The position numbers and the translations under genes were made by a program. Below the pieces are notes generated by a model. It did no database searches. It was not told the origin of the DNA and was given only the letters and a program-made list of their open reading frames with translations. Of a stretch of DNA of 64,000 bases, positions 6,243-15,111 are shown one piece after another. Within the stretch, counting starts at the first letter, position 1; each line of letters starts with the position of its first letter. Origin of the DNA: Candidatus Harrisonbacteria bacterium (lineage in GTDB: Bacteria; Patescibacteriota; Minisyncoccia; UBA6257; 02-FULL-45-10c). Location: positions 67,078-131,077 of the forward strand of contig JACROC010000005.1 in the NCBI GenBank assembly GCA_016214655.1, given 5' to 3'.

Positions 6243-6332
6243 TGGCGGAGGGTACAGGATTCGAACCTGTGATCCCCTTTCGGAGAAACTTGCTTTCCAA
6301 GCAAGCGCACTAGACCGCTGTGCGAACCCTCC
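6243..6332 (-). tRNA. tRNA-Ser (anticodon GGA)
   Basis: Reverse complement folds as a cloverleaf. Acceptor GGAGGGU/ACCCUCC. D stem GCAC/GUGC. Anticodon stem CUUGC/GCAAG with loop UUGGAAA. Long variable arm. T arm ACAGG-UUCGAAU-CCUGU. Encoded CCA. Confidence 0.85.
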
Positions 6333-6374: not shown

Positions 6375-6719
6375 CTACGCTTTCAATCCGTGCTGATTTA
6401 TTCTTGCGGCAAAAGCAAATTGATCAAAGTAGGATTGCAAACCGCTTAAAGAGCTTTTATATTCTTTGCCTCCATATATAGCATCCACAAATACTTCCCT
6501 TGCCCGATTAATTTCTCTAAGCCGGCCGCGCCAGCGCGGATCAGCTAAAGTTAAATCAAAAAGTTCTAAAGCGCGCTCGGCCGCTCCTCTAAAAAGCTTT
6601 TCATCTTTTTCTTGCCAGCGCGCCGCCCGGCTGACTTCGCTGCCAATATTGCCCATTTGCTCTTTTAAACTTAACTGCTGCCATCGGCCGGCGGCTAATT
6701 CTTTATGCTGAAAATCCAT
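6375..6719 (-). CDS. hypothetical protein
   Basis: 114-aa ORF with locally higher GC. Stop/start overlap with the next gene. Confidence 0.4.
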   Translation of the reverse strand: MDFQHKELAAGRWQQLSLKEQMGNIGSEVSRAARWQEKDEKLFRGAAERALELFDLTLADPRWRGRLREINRAREVFVDAIYGGKEYKSSLSGLQSYFDQFAFAARINQHGLKA

Positions 6720-7066
6720 CAGGATACTAATTTTTTAATTATCTGCTTTATTTTATCTCTGACTTCATCTTTTTCTACGCCGCGAGAACGATTGCCGTAA
6801 CTGGGTTTTAAATTTACCATGGAATCAAATTCAATAAAGTCATCTCCGGACTTTTCCAGATAAAGATTGATGCCCCAAGTATTTTCTCTTTTAGACCCCT
6901 CGTTTTCCATTAATAAAGACTCCTCATCTGCATGCAATTCTCCGCCAACTGCCATAATCCTCTGCTCCACATCTACCACTGCCTTTATTACATCGCCAAA
7001 TTCCTCTTTTGCCATTTCTAAAAGCTCTGCTTTGGTAATAGAATTTTTTACAATTTTTATTGCCAT
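6719..7066 (-). CDS. hypothetical protein (DUF5674-like)
   Basis: 115-aa acidic protein. Family assignment is from memory only. Confidence 0.4.
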   Translation of the reverse strand: MAIKIVKNSITKAELLEMAKEEFGDVIKAVVDVEQRIMAVGGELHADEESLLMENEGSKRENTWGINLYLEKSGDDFIEFDSMVNLKPSYGNRSRGVEKDEVRDKIKQIIKKLVS

Positions 7067-7080
7067 AGTTAGAGATTAAA

Positions 7081-8037
7081 TTATATTTTTAAACCACGCA
7101 ACGCTTTTAGGCGTTCTTCTACCGGCGGGTGGGTTAGGAATAATCCGTGCAAAAACGGCTTTTGCGGTTTTTGATCAAATGGATCATCAAACCAAAGATG
7201 AGCAGTGGTGTTATTAGCAACCCGGAGTGGGGTTGGATCTTTGGAAATTTTAATGAGCGCATTGGCAAGCGCATCCGGATAGCGAGTGAGCAGTGCCCCA
7301 GAAGCATCGGCCAACAGTTCCCTTTTTCTGGAAATTGCCAGACGCATTAAGGTTGCAGCCAGTGGCGCTAAAAGCGCTAAGACTAGACCAATTATAATTA
7401 AAATCGGATGTATATTATTCCGTTCATCTCGACTTGACCGGTGCCACCATAATGATCTCATAAAAAAATCGGATGCAATTGAAATAAAGCCAACTAAAAC
7501 CACTGCGGCAGTAGAGATTAGCATATCCCGATTCCCTATATGAGAAAGTTCATGGGCAATCACGCCTTCCAATTCAGATCGATCAAGCCGGCTTAAAAGT
7601 CCAGTGGTCACGGCTACGACTGCATGTTCCGGATTCCGTCCGGTCGCAAAAGCATTCGGCGCCGGTTCATTGATAATATAAATTTTCGGCGTCGGCAGAC
7701 CAGCGGTAATCGCCAGATTTTCCACTACATTATAAAGTTCTTTGGCATTTTCTTTGGTGACTGGTTCGGCATGCGACATCCGCAAAACAATTTTATCGGA
7801 AAACCAATAACTGGTGACGCTCATGCCCATGCTGAAAATAACCGCAACATATAAGATAGACGGGTCGCCGTATGCCTGCGAAAATACCCAGCCAACTCCC
7901 ATAACAACGCCGAAAAATAACGTGAAAAGCAGCCAAGTTTTGCGGATATTGGAATCCTTATGAGTGTACAAATTTGATGGCATGTTTGAGTGAATTATGA
8001 ATGATGAATTAGGAATAAAAGAAGAACCAAAAACCAT
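7081..8037 (-). CDS. htpX: zinc metalloprotease HtpX (peptidase M48)
   Basis: HELSHI motif, TM helices and a C-terminal EERLKAL region. The true start may be the internal Met (MPSNLY), 17 codons downstream. Confidence 0.8.
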   Translation of the reverse strand: MVFGSSFIPNSSFIIHSNMPSNLYTHKDSNIRKTWLLFTLFFGVVMGVGWVFSQAYGDPSILYVAVIFSMGMSVTSYWFSDKIVLRMSHAEPVTKENAKELYNVVENLAITAGLPTPKIYIINEPAPNAFATGRNPEHAVVAVTTGLLSRLDRSELEGVIAHELSHIGNRDMLISTAAVVLVGFISIASDFFMRSLWWHRSSRDERNNIHPILIIIGLVLALLAPLAATLMRLAISRKRELLADASGALLTRYPDALANALIKISKDPTPLRVANNTTAHLWFDDPFDQKPQKPFLHGLFLTHPPVEERLKALRGLKI

Positions 8038-8071: not shown

Positions 8072-8626
8072 CTAGAACTTTACTTTGACCGGAGCTTTTT
8101 CAGAAGTTTCAGCCTCAAAGAATTTTTCTTCAGAAAAACCAAATGGCTTTGCAATAAGATTAGTCGGGAAACTTTGGACTGCGGTATTGAGTGACATAAC
8201 CATAGTATTATAAAAACGGCGGGAGGCTTGGATTTTATTTTCAGTGTCCGCAAGTTCTCGCTGTAAATCTAAGAAATTAGCATTAGCTTTCAGGTCCGGA
8301 TAATTTTCGGAAACCGCAAATAGTGTTTTTAAGGTATTGGAAAGCTGTGTCTCCGCTTGATCACGATCTAAAGGACTGCCACCCATAGACATAACTGCGG
8401 TGCGGGCTTTGGTGACATTTTCTAAAACTGATTTTTCATGCTGCATATATCCTTTGACGGTTTCAATTAAATTGGGAATTAGGTCAAACCGGCGTTTTAA
8501 TTGGACATCAATATCGGAAAGCGCTTCTTTTGCTCGGTTGCGATAACGAACCAATGAATTAAATGTAAAAACTAGCCACAGCACAACGACTCCCAAAACC
8601 CCTAATAAAATATATAAAGTATTCAT
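8072..8626 (-). CDS. lemA: LemA family protein
   Basis: N-terminal TM helix followed by a LemA-like region (RYRNRAKEALSDIDVQLKRRFDLIPNL). Confidence 0.8.
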   Translation of the reverse strand: MNTLYILLGVLGVVVLWLVFTFNSLVRYRNRAKEALSDIDVQLKRRFDLIPNLIETVKGYMQHEKSVLENVTKARTAVMSMGGSPLDRDQAETQLSNTLKTLFAVSENYPDLKANANFLDLQRELADTENKIQASRRFYNTMVMSLNTAVQSFPTNLIAKPFGFSEEKFFEAETSEKAPVKVKF

Positions 8627-8668: not shown

Positions 8669-9103
8669 TTATGGGGATAGGTCTTTTGGCGGAAACACGC
8701 GAGTTGGTGAATTCATATATCGCCGCCAATCATCTCTTTTCTTACGGAGTTTATTTAAATAATTATCCCAGATTTTCAGATCTTCTTTTGAGCGTACGAC
8801 GACCACAACTCGTTCCGGTTTAATCCATTGATAGATATCTTCAAAAGAGTCATATACATCAATTGTTGTATAGGATGAGGTGCTAGTGATTAATTTCACT
8901 GTAACCGAATCAATATCTACCGAAACATCTTTTAGGCGTTCATCGACTGTAACTTCTTTAAAAAATATTTCACATTTACTGCCGCCAGTCGCATTAACGC
9001 TTTTAAATGGCAGATCCAGATAGGTTGCGGTATCGGAGTTAATGACATACGGATTTGCGGATACATTGCCGATAAAAAGGCTGGCTAAAAGGATTTTCAT
9101 CAC
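8669..9103 (-). CDS. hypothetical secreted protein
   Basis: Signal-peptide-like N-terminus (MMKILLASLFIGNVSA). Hairpin terminator downstream. Confidence 0.4.
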   Translation of the reverse strand: MMKILLASLFIGNVSANPYVINSDTATYLDLPFKSVNATGGSKCEIFFKEVTVDERLKDVSVDIDSVTVKLITSTSSYTTIDVYDSFEDIYQWIKPERVVVVVRSKEDLKIWDNYLNKLRKKRDDWRRYMNSPTRVFPPKDLSP

Positions 9104-9189: not shown

Positions 9190-9678
9190 TTATTTCTTTC
9201 TCCGATATCTTTGATAGCAGTAGTGATATGGCGCATTTTCGCCGCCATATTGCAAAGCGGATTGTTCAATTAATTCAAAAACTGATTCGTCAATCTCCGG
9301 GAAAAATGCGTCGCCTTCAAAATTGTGATTGATTAGTGTCACATAAAGCATACCGGCCTTTAGAAGTGCCTGTTTATAAATTTCGGCTCCGCCAATTACG
9401 TAAAGATCGTCCGGAATGCCCCAATTTAAGATTGCATCTAAAGAGTTAGCCAGCACTATTCCTACAGGACTGACTTTTCCTAGATGCCTGGTTATGACAA
9501 CATTAGTCCTATCCGGAAGAGGCTTCCCGATTGATTCATAAGTCTTACGTCCCATAACCACCCACTTGCCAGTAGTTAATTCTTTAAAACGCTTTAAATC
9601 TTCCGGCAGTTTCCAGGGAAGCTTATTATCTTTACCGATAACCCGATTTCTTCCCATTGCGACAACGATATTAATCAT
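9190..9678 (-). CDS. folA: dihydrofolate reductase
   Basis: [35 protein letters not shown] is a canonical DHFR N-terminus. Start overlaps the thyA stop (ATGA). Confidence 0.85.
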
Positions 9679-10469
9679 ACGGCAATCGGCGCCTTAATGC
9701 CGGGATACGGGTTATATCCAACCAACTCAAAGTCTTCTAATCGATAATCAAAAATTGAGTCAACTTTCCGTTTAATTAGCATCTCCGGAAGCGATCTGGG
9801 TTCTCGGCTAAGCTGGAGATCAGCCTGTTTAAAATGATTTAGATAAATATGCGCATCGCCTAAGACGTGGATAAATTCTCCGGGCTGTAATCCGGTCACC
9901 TCGGCAACCATCATGGTTAACAAAGCATAAGACGCAATATTAAACGGGACGCCGAGAAACATATCGCAGCTCCGCTGATAAAGCAGGCAGGAAAGTTTTC
10001 CGTTAGCAACATAAAATTGGAAAAGACAATGACAGGGCGGCAATTTCATTTTTTCAATATCCGCAACATTCCAAGCGCTTACGATTAATCGGCGGTCGTC
10101 TGGCTTCTGCTTGATACGTTCAATAACAGCAGAAACTTGATCAATATGCCTTCCGTCCGGTGCCGGCCAGGAACGCCACTGGTGTCCATAGACCGGACCC
10201 AGATTACCGTCTTTATCCCCCCACTCATCCCAGATTGTAACCCCATGTTCATGCAGAAATTTTAAGTTGGTATCTCCGCGAAGAAACCATAAAAGTTCAA
10301 CGATAATACTTTTAAGGTGCAATTTCTTGGTAGTCACAATAGGAAATCCTTGAGAGAGATTAAAACGCATTTGCCGGCCGAAAACGCTGATAGTGCCTAC
10401 GCCGGTACGATCGCTTTTTTGAGTGCCGTTTTGCCGGATATCGCGAAGCACATCAAGATATTGCTTCAC
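9675..10469 (-). CDS. thyA: thymidylate synthase (likely GTG start)
   Basis: [11 protein letters not shown] active-site region. A GTG start gives [11 protein letters not shown], a 264-aa protein like canonical ThyA. The track ATG at 10541 lies inside the terminator hairpin and is rejected. Confidence 0.85.
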
Positions 10470-10562: not shown

Positions 10563-11138
10563 TTATTTTTTAGGATAACAAAAATTGTCTAACTGATCAC
10601 CGCAGCGAAGTAAGTCAATATATTTCTCCAAAATAAATGGTGTCCGCTTATCTTTGTCCATTACCCACAAGCGAGGATCTGCTAGCCGCCTTTCTTTCCA
10701 GCACCGTATGATTCCTGGTACAACGGACCCCTCTCCTTCACAAGTCTTTGGCGCTAACCCCAATAAAAGATATCGGCATTGTAATCCGCAAATATGATCT
10801 TTAAGCGCCATTCCGAAACAACAGTCATTTACGAAGATAGCTGGCTTACTTCGATTCCTCAGGATTTGGATAAGAGATCTGTAAGACATCAGGCGGTTTT
10901 CCAATAACTGCCACCCATCTCGGTAGCCATGGCCCCCGTAATAAAGTACTACCGGTTCATTAATTTTAGCAATGTCCTTTAAAAAATCCTCCAGGCTGAC
11001 CTTCTTTTTATAAACTTCTTCGTTATAGAAATGGATTCTATCCAACGGCAATTTAACTTGATTTCTGAAATATTCAAAAAATTCCGCAGTTTCCGATTCA
11101 AATTCCGGTTTAAAATGTTGAACTATGACAAGGTGCAT
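10563..11138 (-). CDS. minimal caspase-hemoglobinase-fold (caspase-like) peptidase candidate
   Basis: VVLYYGGHG (His70) and AIFVNDCCFG (Cys106/107) are 36 residues apart, each after a hydrophobic strand, matching the caspase/C14 His-Cys dyad. Strong SD AAAGGAGG 5 nt upstream. Own terminators on both sides. Confidence 0.45.
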   Translation of the reverse strand: MHLVIVQHFKPEFESETAEFFEYFRNQVKLPLDRIHFYNEEVYKKKVSLEDFLKDIAKINEPVVLYYGGHGYRDGWQLLENRLMSYRSLIQILRNRSKPAIFVNDCCFGMALKDHICGLQCRYLLLGLAPKTCEGEGSVVPGIIRCWKERRLADPRLWVMDKDKRTPFILEKYIDLLRCGDQLDNFCYPKK

Positions 11139-11250
11139 TTAGCCTCCTTTGGCTATTTTCTATAAAATAACACGTTTTGTATATTTTTTCAAGAAAAAAT
11201 CCCGCTTGGCGGGATTAATAAATTTAATGACCCTTCGATGAACTCAGGAC

Positions 11251-11805
11251 CTAGTGGTCCATCATTTCTGGATTATATTCCTCAATTGTTAATTTATTGC
11301 GCGCAATCAGCAAACCTCCGGGGCCCTGATGAAATTCCAGCGATTTTTGCAGTAATCGAACGACGCAAGAGTCAATCTTTTCAAGAATAACACCCTGTTC
11401 TTTGCGGGCCATTTCAACGTGTTCCTCTGTATCTTCCTTACGATAATCTTCCAGATAATAAATATTTTTAATCCCAACTGCCAAAAATAAGTTGAAACAA
11501 TCCTTGCACGGGCGAGTAGTAACAAAAGCATATCCGCCACTCAAATCTCTACCGCCGGAAAAAAGCACAGCATTTCTTTCAGCGTGCGTCACCCTGACAC
11601 AATGGCCATCAACCATTAAGTGGCCGACTTCATCGCATTGAGGAGCTCCTGCCGGCGCGCCATTATAACCAGTGGCAACAACTCTTTTATCCTTGAACAA
11701 TGCACAACCAACAATTTTTCTCCGGCATGTCGCTCTTAACGAAGCGCCATAAGCAAGAAAAGAACCGTATTCCAAAAAACTTAACCGCGGCGGATCTTCG
11801 TGCAT
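11251..11805 (-). CDS. dCMP deaminase (cytidine/deoxycytidylate deaminase zinc-binding family)
   Basis: HAERNA and PCKDC zinc-ligand motifs. Confidence 0.8.
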   Translation of the reverse strand: MHEDPPRLSFLEYGSFLAYGASLRATCRRKIVGCALFKDKRVVATGYNGAPAGAPQCDEVGHLMVDGHCVRVTHAERNAVLFSGGRDLSGGYAFVTTRPCKDCFNLFLAVGIKNIYYLEDYRKEDTEEHVEMARKEQGVILEKIDSCVVRLLQKSLEFHQGPGGLLIARNKLTIEEYNPEMMDH

Positions 11806-11884: not shown

Positions 11885-13519
11885 TTACATCATTCCGCCC
11901 ATTCCCCCAGGCGGCATTGCCGGTCCTTCTTTTTTCGGCTCTGGTTTTTCTGTTACTGCGGCGCCAATCACTAAATAGTTTGCCGCAACTGATACAGCGT
12001 TCAAGAATGCAGTTTTGGTAACTTTGAGCGGATCAATAATGCCTGCTTTTTTAAGGTCATCGGTTTTGTTAGTGTGCGCGTTAAAACCCATCCAGGCATC
12101 TTTTTTATTCTTTAATTCTGAAAGAATTTTGGCAGCATTTTCTCCGCTATTTTCGACAATAGAAGTAATTGGGGCTTCCAACGCTCGCTTCAAAATAGTT
12201 TTTACCGCATTAGCTTCGTTATTTTCTTCTTTGGTCTCGCCCATCTCTTTTAGTGCATTAAATAGTGCCATACCACCTCCGGGCACAATTCCCTCTTCCA
12301 TAGCTGCGCGAGTAGCCGCAACCGCATCTTCCACTCTTTGCTTGAGCTCTTTCTGAGCAGATTCAGTAGGGGCGCCAACTTTTATCACAGAAACGCCGCC
12401 AGTAAGTTTTCCGAGACGCTCCTGCAATTTTTCTTTATCAAAGTCAGATTCAGTTTTCTTCAGCTGTACTTTAAGCTGTGATACCCTTGCCGCGATTTCT
12501 TCTTTTGATCCTTTTCCGCCGACAACGGTAGTGTTATCTTTATTTGAAACTACTCGATGAGCCTGGCCTAAATCATGCACATCTGCGGAATCCAGTTTTT
12601 TACCAACCTCTTCAGAAATAAAAGTGGCGCCGGTTACTACGCAAAGATCCTGCAGTATTTCTTTTCTACGATCGCCGAATCCGGGCGCTTTTACTGCAAG
12701 TACATTAAAAATTCCGCGCAATTTATTTACTACCAATGTTGCCAGTGCCTCGCCTTCAACCTCATCGGCAACAATTACCAATTCTTTCTTACCGCTTTGA
12801 ACTATTTTTTCTAAAAGCGGCAAAAGCTCTTGTATAGAAGAAACTTTTTTATCAGTGACTAAAATATAAGGGTTTTCTAGCACCGCTTCCATGCGTTCGC
12901 TATTGGTAACCATATATTGGGAAACATAACCGCGGTCAAACTGCATGCCCTCAACCATTTCATAGGAATTGCCAATGGTATTGGAATCTTCAATAGTAAC
13001 CACGCCATCGCGGCCGACTTTATTCATTACTTCGGCAATCAGTTTTCCAATTTCCGGATCTTTTGCTGAAAGAGTTGCCACCTCTTCAATTTTTTTATTG
13101 TCATTAATCGGTTCACGCTGTTTTTCAAGGGCGTGGATGACCTTTTCACTTGCTTTTTTTAATTCCTCGGCCAGCCGGATCACATTAAATCCTTTTTCCC
13201 GGATGGCGGTTTCCCCTTCATCAATCATGGCGTGCGCCAAGACCACTGAAGTAGTAGTTCCGTCGCCGACATTATCATTAGTTTTATCGGCAGCTTGTTT
13301 AATCAATTCCGCGCCGAGATTTTCATATTTATCTTCCAATTCCACTTCCTTAGCAACTGTCACGCCGTCAAAAGTAACTTGGGGAGCGCCGTAGCCTTTT
13401 TCAATCACAACTGCCCGGCCGCGTGGACCAAGAGTCATGCTAACTGCCGCTGCCAGCTTATCAATGCCTTTTTTAATAGCTGCGCGAGCGTCTTCGTTAA
13501 ATAAAAGTTGTTTTGCCAT
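11885..13519 (-). CDS. groEL: chaperonin GroEL
   Basis: Full-length Hsp60 with a GGM-rich C-terminus (PPGGMGGMM) and a conserved ATP-binding region (GDGTTT). Confidence 0.97.
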   Translation of the reverse strand: MAKQLLFNEDARAAIKKGIDKLAAAVSMTLGPRGRAVVIEKGYGAPQVTFDGVTVAKEVELEDKYENLGAELIKQAADKTNDNVGDGTTTSVVLAHAMIDEGETAIREKGFNVIRLAEELKKASEKVIHALEKQREPINDNKKIEEVATLSAKDPEIGKLIAEVMNKVGRDGVVTIEDSNTIGNSYEMVEGMQFDRGYVSQYMVTNSERMEAVLENPYILVTDKKVSSIQELLPLLEKIVQSGKKELVIVADEVEGEALATLVVNKLRGIFNVLAVKAPGFGDRRKEILQDLCVVTGATFISEEVGKKLDSADVHDLGQAHRVVSNKDNTTVVGGKGSKEEIAARVSQLKVQLKKTESDFDKEKLQERLGKLTGGVSVIKVGAPTESAQKELKQRVEDAVAATRAAMEEGIVPGGGMALFNALKEMGETKEENNEANAVKTILKRALEAPITSIVENSGENAAKILSELKNKKDAWMGFNAHTNKTDDLKKAGIIDPLKVTKTAFLNAVSVAANYLVIGAAVTEKPEPKKEGPAMPPGGMGGMM

Positions 13520-13661: not shown

Positions 13662-13952
13662 TTATTCTATAATCGCGAGTATGTCTGCTTCCTCCCCGAC
13701 TAAGTATTTTTTGCCGTCGACTTCCAGCTCATCGGGGCCGTATTTTTTAAATAAAACTACATTACCAACTTTTACTGACATTGGCGCGCGCTGGCCGTTT
13801 TCCAAAAGTTTTCCCGGGCCAACCGCCACCACTTTTCCTTTAATTGGTTTTTGTTTTTCCGCCGTTTCTGGCAGTACAATGCCAGATTTGGTGGTCTTTT
13901 CTTCCTCTAGCGGCTCAAGAAAGATGTGATCATTTAATGGGTGTAAATTCAT
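13662..13952 (-). CDS. groES: co-chaperonin GroES
   Basis: 96-aa Hsp10. IVLPETAEKQKPIKGKVVAVGPG mobile-loop region. Confidence 0.95.
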   Translation of the reverse strand: MNLHPLNDHIFLEPLEEEKTTKSGIVLPETAEKQKPIKGKVVAVGPGKLLENGQRAPMSVKVGNVVLFKKYGPDELEVDGKKYLVGEEADILAIIE

Positions 13953-14052: not shown

Positions 14053-14394
14053 TTATATTTTTAGGATATCTTTTAATTCCCGCTCTACTTCTTTATAAAG
14101 CTGGTCGGAATTAGACTCCAGGAGATGCGCCCGGACACAAATCAGATGCTTTACAAAAGGATGCTTGCGGAGATGTTCCTGCATTTTATCTTCCCGGGTT
14201 GCTTTGCCGCTGCAGGTCTTAACCTGTAATGGCAATGCCCAGCCGTCATTTTTAAATATTAAAAAATCTATACCTGCGACATCCAAGGCGTCGTTTTGTT
14301 TATTTATTAAAAAGTGTAAGATTAATCTCCGTTCTTTCATTGATCCTAAAACCTTTGCAACTATATTTTCCGAGAGATTCTCTCTTTTCGGCAA
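14053..14394 (-). CDS. hypothetical protein
   Basis: 113 aa, immediately downstream of the nucleotidyltransferase. It has an R-x4-H spacing (RRLILH) but is not confidently HEPN. Confidence 0.35.
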   Translation of the reverse strand: MPKRENLSENIVAKVLGSMKERRLILHFLINKQNDALDVAGIDFLIFKNDGWALPLQVKTCSGKATREDKMQEHLRKHPFVKHLICVRAHLLESNSDQLYKEVERELKDILKI

Positions 14395-14436
14395 TCTATG
14401 TCCTTATGAAATTTTTAAGGTAATTTAAGTATAAAC

Positions 14437-15111
14437 TTATTTTTGTTTCAGCAGCAACTCTATGCGCCTGGTGTCAGGATGGAATTCTAGCTCGTTATCG
14501 CTAATGATAATTCTTGGCTTATATTCAATACTCTGATTTGCCATAATTTTGATTTTTTCAAATTGAATTTTTTTGAATAGTTTTTCAAACCAATCTCCTG
14601 TTCTACCAGATAAAAGTTGCTCCAATAACTTCTTGGTCTTACTGGCTTTTATATATACATGCCTATTATCTTCCTGATATAAACGGATTTTTTTCATCCA
14701 ATTTTTATTTGCCCGATAGAATTTTTGAATAAGCCGGGGATCGCCGTATACCGGAACTAAAGAATTATATAAATTTTTCCAGTATTTATTATGGGGTGGG
14801 GATAAGCGATATGAATTTGGAGTTACAAAATGATTGAAACAAAGTTTATCTTTGGAATCGTCCGGATGCTTAGCCCACCAACCCAAAGAACGGAAAATTA
14901 AGAAACAAATAAGCCTTGCTGTAAAGATTCTCCCTTGCCGGACGCCAACAATCACATCAAAATCCGACTCCTCATGCATATTTCCAGTCGCAAGCGATCC
15001 CGCGGCAAATACAAAATCAACAAATGGAATAAATCTAAATGGCCAAACGCATCTTAAAAATTTTTGCCATTTTAGTTTATATATATTATTACTTGACATA
15101 TATTGAAGCAT
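14437..15111 (-). CDS. nucleotidyltransferase (Pol-beta superfamily) domain protein
   Basis: AGSLATGNMHEESDFDVIV is a GS...DxD NTase motif. Confidence 0.6.
   Translation of the reverse strand: MLQYMSSNNIYKLKWQKFLRCVWPFRFIPFVDFVFAAGSLATGNMHEESDFDVIVGVRQGRIFTARLICFLIFRSLGWWAKHPDDSKDKLCFNHFVTPNSYRLSPPHNKYWKNLYNSLVPVYGDPRLIQKFYRANKNWMKKIRLYQEDNRHVYIKASKTKKLLEQLLSGRTGDWFEKLFKKIQFEKIKIMANQSIEYKPRIIISDNELEFHPDTRRIELLLKQK

Follow-up and report, generated by a model that had tools for sequence, protein, structure and literature searches.

A 191-residue protein of Candidatus Harrisonbacteria is predicted to be a free-standing clan CD cysteine peptidase homologue

In the layout described by McLuskey and Mottram for caspases and legumains, a six-stranded sheet is accompanied by five helices, with a second, small sheet of three strands between beta3 and alpha3 (PMC4357240). 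Clan CD peptidases carry their catalytic histidine at the end of beta3 and their catalytic cysteine at the end of beta4 (PMC4357240). In caspase-7, the dyad consists of His144 and Cys186, which corresponds to a spacing of 42 residues, and caspases oligomerise along strand beta6 (PMC4357240). Prokaryotic caspase homologues are very diverse (PMC3501461, PMC5756287). Here, we describe gene X, a minus-strand gene in a stretch of 64,000 nucleotides from a Candidatus Harrisonbacteria bacterium (GenBank assembly GCA_016214655.1, contig JACROC010000005.1, positions 67,078 to 131,077, referred to below as the window). The gene X product is identical to the NCBI entry "hypothetical protein HZB99_01960" of Candidatus Harrisonbacteria bacterium. 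A first-pass annotation, made from the letters of the window, had proposed that it is a minimal caspase-fold protein.

The structure of the gene X product was predicted with AlphaFold2 (AF2) from an alignment of 95 sequences, with a predicted local distance difference test score (pLDDT) of 97.6 and a predicted template modelling score (pTM) of 0.93. This model superseded one built from 11 sequences only, in which residues 1-105 were well predicted, residues 107-191 had a pLDDT below 50, and the best Foldseek matches were caspase-2, metacaspases and legumain. The order of the secondary structure elements in the 95-sequence model (Table 1) is that of the caspase/legumain layout (PMC4357240), with VVLYYGG-H70-G coming after beta3 (residues 63-68) and IFVNDC-C107 after beta4 (residues 100-105).

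Foldseek comparison of the model with the PDB placed GPI8/PIGK at the top (7wld_K, E=1.7e-4, query TM-score (TMq) 0.64). Further matches included plant legumains and ligases, butelase, caspase-4, metacaspase-9 and CED-3, nearly all with a Foldseek probability of 0.99-1.00. In the BFVD database, a "caspase domain protein" of 200 aa from Megaviridae (A0A5J6VJD2) was matched with E=1.2e-6, a TMq of 0.60 and a target TM-score (TMt) of 0.58, and other giant-virus caspases and metacaspases were also among the matches. A few non-clan-CD alpha/beta proteins with low TM-scores were present lower in both lists, and no gingipain (C25) was found among the top 50 Foldseek matches. Because the top matches are almost all clan CD proteins, the caspase fold postulated in the first-pass annotation is supported. 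The predicted dyad aligns with that of GPI8. The AF2 domain takes up the entire chain from residue 2 onwards, and there is therefore no room for a signal peptide, a prodomain, a linker or an extra domain. The earlier description of the protein as small and without a fused effector or sensor domain thus agrees with the model. As modelled, the gene X product is a full clan CD catalytic domain with His70 and Cys107 at the canonical dyad positions.

Conservation points to the same two residues. When 1.84 billion cluster representatives were searched exhaustively with phmmer, 95 gene X homologues were identified at E<=1e-3, and they correspond to about 95 clusters at 50% identity. Most of them are 150-300 aa long, and nearly all have a GHG near residue 70 and a D-C-C about 36 residues further on. 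A profile search of an index of 5.8 billion proteins added few members to the family. Few family members come with a source name, and for those that do it is Harrisonbacteria or Patescibacteria. In the alignment of the 95 homologues, no columns other than His70 and Cys107 are invariant, and G69, G71, W76, Y86, W147 and G180 are conserved in at least 90% of the sequences. Among the related loci compared below, all copies of X that cover the respective positions, both members of tandem pairs included, have kept G69, H70, G71, C107, W147, R178, G180 and D184. Ten further proteins that are 46-56% identical to the gene X product retain YYGGHG and NDCC. Pairwise dN/dS ratios (nonsynonymous to synonymous substitution rates) among gene X homologues were 0.10-0.21, with dS near saturation and the proportion of nonsynonymous differences (pN) far below that of synonymous differences (pS), and gene X is under purifying selection.

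The first-pass annotation had noted GGHG and NDCC at the spacing of the C14 catalytic dyad and had left the choice between Cys106 and Cys107 open. Both motifs stand, although the spacing between His70 and Cys107 is 37 residues and thus slightly under the 42 residues found in caspase-7 and in GPI8 (His164/Cys206, counted from the profile alignment). Cys107, and not Cys106, is likely to be the nucleophile, because His70 and Cys107 are the sole invariant columns; Cys106 is exchanged for Ser, Ala or Thr in some family members. Three other cysteines, C121, C146 and C187, are conserved in the close clade only (gene X homologues with 46-56% identity), and the idea that they form a metal site as a feature of the family was rejected for this reason. 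A separate observation concerns the subgroup P0022, P0024, P0028, P0034 and P0040, which has cysteine-rich inserts at two places, after beta1 (motifs such as CPC and CHC) and ahead of the C-terminal RxG motif, at columns of about 30-100 and 300-400 of family alignment A2. These inserts may be zinc-binding.

Sequence profiles also led to clan CD. In order to see which weak matches recur, 49 family members were scanned one at a time against Pfam. C14 and C25 were matched weakly by 22 members each, Raptor_N by 15 and C13 by 4, with best E-values of 4.7e-5 for C14 and 0.027 for C13. Every other Pfam family was matched by a single member. Judged from these sequence matches, the recurrent weak hits of the hidden Markov models (HMMs) are all to clan CD families or caspase-like domains. 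When PDB sequences were searched with the single sequence (phmmer) or with a profile of 11 close homologues, nothing useful was obtained. The 49-sequence profile, by comparison, matched Arabidopsis metacaspase-4 (E=1e-4), GPI8 (E=0.008) and Raptor (E of about 0.04), and in the GPI8 alignment GHG and DCC fell on His164 and Cys206.

The only HMM match of the gene X product to an unrelated function was to 5'-nucleotidases (PF05761, HAD-IG family, E=2e-4, 20.8 bits against a cut-off of 28.5; TIGR02244, E=1.5e-3, 17.8 bits against 237). A 5'-nucleotidase identity was rejected, since these matches were below threshold and seen in 1 of the 49 members, and since no HAD protein or 5'-nucleotidase was present among the 50 Foldseek matches listed. 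The comparison of a structural model and of profiles with the clan CD families, which the first-pass annotation had proposed, was favourable, with C14, C25, Raptor_N and C13 as the only recurrent weak HMM matches.

No curated model in Pfam, NCBIfam, PADLOC or PHROGs covers the gene X family, and nothing relevant came from literature searches that paired caspase, metacaspase, orthocaspase or peptidase C14 with candidate phyla radiation (CPR), Patescibacteria, Parcubacteria or Harrisonbacteria. As no curated family threshold was reached, we take the gene X homologues to be a small clan CD family of their own that had not been described before, and a new family of this clan is probably the correct description. 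The earlier caspase-fold reading holds at the level of the clan; the nearest structures are of the C13 type and not those of caspases proper, and the Pfam thresholds of all curated families were missed.

On the basis of sequence comparison and modelling, we consider it likely that gene X encodes an active cytoplasmic single-domain clan CD cysteine endopeptidase or transpeptidase, with the whole 191-residue chain as the catalytic domain. Cys107 would serve as the nucleophile and form the acyl-enzyme, and His70 would act as the general acid/base. Asp105, two residues ahead of Cys107, may line the S1 pocket like Asp211 of TbMCA2, and this analogy would hint at a preference for basic P1 residues. 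In a protein without prodomain, inter-subunit linker and sensor domain, activity might be controlled by oligomerisation or substrate access and not by proteolytic maturation. Oligomerisation is plausible because several relatives carry tandem paralogues. Together with these paralogues, the conserved R178-x-G180...D184 on and after beta6 suggests, by analogy with caspases, that oligomers could form along this strand. The genomic setting between GroES-GroEL and LemA-HtpX (see below) is a weak hint that X takes part in protein processing or quality control.

Several results weigh against this reading. The gene X product matched Pfam C14 (PF00656) with E=0.0062 and 16.7 bits against a cut-off of 21.4, and Pfam C25 (PF01364, gingipain) with E=0.067 and 12.8 against 23 bits. 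It had no match to Pfam C13 (PF01650, legumain/GPI8), and no peptidase family was matched at or above its curated cut-off. The Foldseek E-values are modest (1e-4), and the identity to known structures is 10-16%. The assignment of Asp105 to the S1 pocket is made solely by analogy, and the GroEL/LemA/HtpX neighbourhood may be mere inherited gene order in related genomes, with remote family members located elsewhere.

The structural and profile matches also bear on two other explanations. The best structural matches, the GPI transamidase subunit GPI8/PIGK and peptide asparaginyl ligases/butelase, would fit a transpeptidase or peptide ligase that is not a hydrolase and in which the Cys107 thioester is resolved by an amine nucleophile, as in GPI8 and the plant asparaginyl ligases, so that a peptide or protein would be joined to another molecule. 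In the 49-sequence profile search of PDB sequences, too, GPI8 is the one aligned at both catalytic motifs. However, C13 hydrolases and ligases share one fold and are indistinguishable at this level, C14 families score equally well by sequence, and X has neither the signal peptide nor the membrane anchor and partner subunits of the GPI8 type. We regard such a transpeptidase or ligase as unlikely.

The Raptor matches raise the question of whether X is a catalytically inert caspase-fold scaffold, similar to the Raptor N-terminal domain or to pseudo-orthocaspases. Weak Raptor_N matches in 15 of the 49 members and the presence of Raptor in the PDB profile search would be in line with such a pseudo-protease. 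Strict invariance of His70 and Cys107, and of no other residue, in 95 divergent sequences argues otherwise: known pseudo-variants have lost the dyad, and pseudo-orthocaspases have Tyr/Ser in its place (PMC6426788). An inert scaffold is thus very unlikely, and an active peptidase remains our preferred interpretation.

In the window, the minus strand reads AAAGGAGGCTAAATG at the gene X start. The strong Shine-Dalgarno sequence and the terminators on both sides of the gene that were reported in the first-pass annotation were found again, as AGGAGG 4 nt ahead of the ATG and as hairpins upstream and directly downstream of the gene (Table 1). Terminator-like sites are enriched in the gene X region, with 9 per 3.2 kb compared with 3.5 +/- 1.8 in shuffled sequences. 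The count of promoter-like sites in the same region, obtained with a consensus scan, was not above that of shuffles. A second copy of gene X was not found within the 64-kb window.

Table 1. Position of gene X, its signals, its neighbours and corresponding features of related loci. Positions refer to the window, except where a locus (L) or residue numbers of the gene X product are given.
Feature	Position	Strand	Basis or remark
Gene X, 191 aa, ATG start	10563..11138	-	Open reading frame (ORF); predicted single-domain clan CD cysteine peptidase homologue
His70 codon, motif PVVLYYGGHG	10929..10931	-	Predicted catalytic His just after beta3; invariant; aligns with GPI8 His164
Asp105-Cys106-Cys107 codons, motif AIFVNDCCFG (NDCC)	10818..10826	-	Asp105 10824-10826, Cys106 10821-10823, Cys107 10818-10820; Cys107 is the predicted nucleophile just after beta4
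Shine-Dalgarno AGGAGG	11143..11148	-	4 nt ahead of gene X ATG (11136-11138); read from the sequence
Promoter-like site, extended -10 (TTGAAA-17-TATTTT with TG)	11164..11192	-	Upstream of gene X; consensus scan only
Terminator-like hairpin, 8 pairs and T-run	11216-11198	-	Between dCMP deaminase stop and gene X
Terminator-like hairpin, 14 pairs	10561-10530	-	Directly 3' of gene X stop codon
AF2 elements before His70	residues		beta1 2-7, alpha1 11-27, beta2 35-38, alpha2 49-57, beta3 63-68
AF2 elements, middle	residues		Three short strands at 70-85, alpha3 86-93, beta4 100-105 (then Cys107)
AF2 elements after Cys107	residues		alpha4 109-118, beta5 123-127, alpha5 140-148, helix 167-177, beta6 178-180
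GroES	13662-13952	-	ORF, Cpn10 annotation of syntenic genes; upstream anchor
GroEL	11885-13519	-	ORF, Cpn60 annotation of syntenic genes; upstream anchor
dCMP deaminase, upstream neighbour	11251..11805	-	PF00383, E=4.8e-15
Thymidylate synthase ThyA	9675..10469	-	PF00303, E=3.9e-125; likely GTG start at 10469
Dihydrofolate reductase FolA	9190..9678	-	PF00186, E=1.7e-54
u144, conserved uncharacterised 144-aa protein, hydrophobic signal-like N-terminus	8669..9103	-	Synteny
LemA	8072-8626	-	Pfam; downstream anchor of conserved block
HtpX-like M48 peptidase	7081-8037	-	Pfam; downstream anchor of conserved block
Synthase slot: ThyA+FolA	window (9190-10469), L003/L004, L011, L015
Synthase slot: ThyX	L001 (8702-9628)/L010
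Synthase slot: ThyX, 32-34% identical to L001 ThyX	L012 (2545-3372), L013 (1468-2244)/L014
Synthase slot: further divergent ThyX	L008 (8654-9577)		RHR...SGRY motif; missed by tblastn
Synthase slot: empty	L002
Tandem X paralogues	L016 500-2000; L017 1856-3356; L018 7131-8720; L019 2-1398; L023 4061-5717; L024 5859-7515

The neighbouring dCMP deaminase, ThyA and FolA genes, already named in the first-pass annotation, were confirmed by Pfam. Taken at its longest, the ThyA ORF would begin with ATG 10541, which falls within the hairpin 3' of gene X; the GTG at 10469 is the more likely start, because the PF00303 profile begins at residue 2 of the resulting 264-aa version. No Pfam family was matched by the u144 protein, and its match in PADLOC was weak (PDC-S07, E=0.006). 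In nearly all close-clade loci that reach far enough, a u144 homologue is present, either at the contig end or ahead of LemA/HtpX and after X or the thymidylate synthase. Where detected in related loci, these homologues, with 30-77% identity, are located just before LemA/HtpX or at a contig end. Two small genes upstream of GroES (window 14053-15111, minus strand), which encode a 113-aa protein without Pfam match and a 224-aa protein with a weak NTP_transf_2 (nucleotidyltransferase) match, are syntenic in L001, L002, L015, L018 and L024. A gene for a DUF5674 protein (6719-7066, minus strand) lies just downstream of HtpX, and a tRNA-Ser(GGA) at 6243-6332 is the sole tRNA/Rfam match in the window.

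In order to place gene X in its genomic context, the window neighbours were compared by tblastn with 29 related loci. In the close clade, the gene order is GroES-GroEL-(0-2 small genes)-dCMP deaminase-X-thymidylate synthase-u144-LemA-HtpX. The slot 3' of X is filled by ThyA and FolA, by ThyX proteins of different types, or by neither (Table 1). With non-orthologous thymidylate synthases in closely related genomes, it looks like a site of repeated in-situ displacement, in which ThyX took the place of ThyA/FolA or the other way round. L001, which has ThyX, and L003, which has ThyA/FolA, have X proteins that are 68% identical. P0012, a family member with 40% identity, has a dCTP deaminase (DCD) in place of the dCMP deaminase and no synthase. 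X orthologues with 28-35% identity (L007, L016-L018, L020, L021, L023/24, L026, L028) follow GroEL and have no thymidylate genes; LemA/HtpX comes directly after X wherever the contig continues, and X is often present as two tandem paralogues. The remote members P0030, P0038 and P0044 have unrelated neighbours. One apparent gene X locus, L009 (Ginsengibacter), was discarded as a false positive with ORFs unrelated to X, leaving L008 as the sole true locus from a scan of genome contigs.

Tandem X pairs sit between GroEL and LemA where the contig includes the flanks, and both copies keep the His/Cys dyad. The two copies belong to distinct sequence types, for example G75/Y86/N104/K131 and Y75/F86/A104/E131, and may form a heterodimer. 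In close relatives, a second, divergent X paralogue is found just upstream of GroES in L008 (3714-4562) and L002 (1326-1667), and in L015 at the contig start (3-623), about 3 kb upstream of GroES.

The placement among thymidylate genes, which had been noted as unusual, is real but confined to one clade, and it is not a property of the family. The GroESL...LemA-HtpX block is the older anchor of X, and even this block is not kept across the whole family. Within this block, the thymidylate genes next to X are an addition made in one clade, and they are probably not a guide to the function of X.

Nevertheless, the association is striking enough in the close clade to consider a part for X in pyrimidine deoxynucleotide metabolism, either as a cysteine-dependent enzyme acting on a nucleotide or folate intermediate or as a regulatory protease with dCMP deaminase or thymidylate synthase as its target. 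Wherever a close-clade locus reaches upstream of X, a deaminase that produces dUMP or dUTP directly precedes X (DCD in L005, otherwise dCMP deaminase), and X is directly upstream of thymidylate synthase in most of the loci, despite the exchange between ThyA+FolA and at least 3 divergent ThyX types. In L015 (7294-7301), the X ATG is about 1 nt past the dCMP deaminase stop, an arrangement that suggests co-transcription or translational coupling of the two genes. The weak HAD-IG 5'-nucleotidase match of the window protein alone would also point in this direction.

On the other side, the 28-35% identical orthologues between GroEL and LemA do without thymidylate genes (L007, L016-L018, L021, L023/24, L026), and remote members have unrelated neighbours altogether. 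In the window and in L001, the gap between deaminase and X is roughly 100-250 bp long and contains a hairpin, and terminator-like hairpins bracket X. Displacement of a gene in situ by its analogue requires no involvement of the neighbour, and the nucleotidase match was below threshold and limited to 1 of 49 members. An N-terminal HAD motif I has no room in X, and clan CD members are not known to act on bonds other than peptide bonds. We therefore judge a nucleotide-related role to be distinctly unlikely. The same low expectation applies to a functional coupling of X to dTMP synthesis in Harrisonbacteria-like CPR bacteria, be it by proteolytic control of dCMP deaminase or thymidylate synthase or as the first clan CD enzyme in nucleotide metabolism. 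If true, such a coupling would explain why X stayed between deaminase and synthase although the synthase was replaced at least 3 times.

Prokaryotic caspase homologues are often linked to conflict systems, and several family paralogues can be present per genome. In an anti-phage or cell-suicide system, X could accordingly be pictured as the effector protease, comparable to the caspase-like proteases tied to CRISPR, gasdermins and other defence systems. However, X matched 0 families in PADLOC-DB at E<=1 and no PHROG, has no fused sensor or effector domain, and has no neighbouring gene that matched a defence or phage family. Many genomes keep it at the same place between housekeeping genes. The defence-system explanation was rejected for lack of PADLOC and PHROG matches, and we consider it extremely unlikely.

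If X is the peptidase that the fold and the dyad suggest, a family now labelled "hypothetical protein" and so far known from Patescibacteria is added to clan CD. With 191 residues, the chain is hardly longer than the minimum that a caspase/legumain catalytic domain needs, and X would be a convenient model for the catalytic needs of the core fold without prodomains, linkers and regulatory domains. It is also a candidate cytoplasmic processing protease for the genome-reduced CPR bacteria.

Among the known clan CD systems, family C13 (GPI8/PIGK, legumain, asparaginyl endopeptidases and ligases) provides the best structural matches to the gene X product and has the six-strand, five-helix topology of its model in common (PMC4357240). 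GHG and D-x-C align with His164 and Cys206 of GPI8, at a spacing of 37 residues in X compared with 42. The gene X product differs from C13 proteins in being half their size or less, in the absence of a signal peptide, a prodomain and a C-terminal LSAM/cap domain, and in a sequence identity of only 10-14%. Its cysteine motif, D-C-C-F-G, is also different from that of legumain, which is E-A-C-E-S.

Family C14B, with the metacaspases and bacterial orthocaspases, provides the best sequence-profile match (metacaspase-4, E=1e-4), and C14 is the most frequent weak Pfam match together with C25 (22 of 49 each). Y-[SG]-G-H-G and D-C-C of the gene X family resemble (Y/F)SGHG and D(S/C)CHSG of metacaspases. 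In TbMCA2, Asp211 is found at -2 of Cys213, like Asp105 relative to Cys107 in X; Asp211 is one of the proposed S1 residues, and the matching position in caspase-7 is Gln184 (PMC4357240). The TbMCA2 sheet has eight strands, two of them inserted after beta4 and before beta5 (PMC4357240), whereas the gene X model has a six-stranded core with just the helix 109-118 in this place. The p10-type extension, the Ca-binding loop and the N-terminal prodomain are all absent from X. The His-Cys spacing of 37 in X compares with about 55 in TbMCA2, in which the catalytic histidine is His158. Caspases proper (C14A), which have an S1 pocket of Arg/Gln/Arg for Asp, are more distant: X has N-D-C-C-F-G and not Q-A-C-x-G, and an inter-subunit linker, which carries the maturation cleavage site in caspases, is absent because alpha4 starts at residue 109, only two residues past Cys107.

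The caspase-like N-terminal domain of Raptor, a pseudo-protease, shows a weak profile likeness to X (Raptor_N in 15 of 49 members, PDB E of about 0.04). It is part of a scaffold protein of 1,300 aa, in contrast to the free-standing gene X product with its strictly conserved dyad. The small caspase-domain proteins of giant viruses (for example A0A5J6VJD2, 200 aa) are similar to X in size and single-domain architecture and in their mutual structural match, although the identity is 13%, the viruses infect eukaryotes, and they are not known to have any gene context in common with X. Gene X reveals no new kind of system, and equally small caspase-domain proteins are present in giant viruses. Its nearest relatives are C13/C14B-like proteins and not caspases proper, and its nearest structures are those of the C13 proteins GPI8 and legumain.

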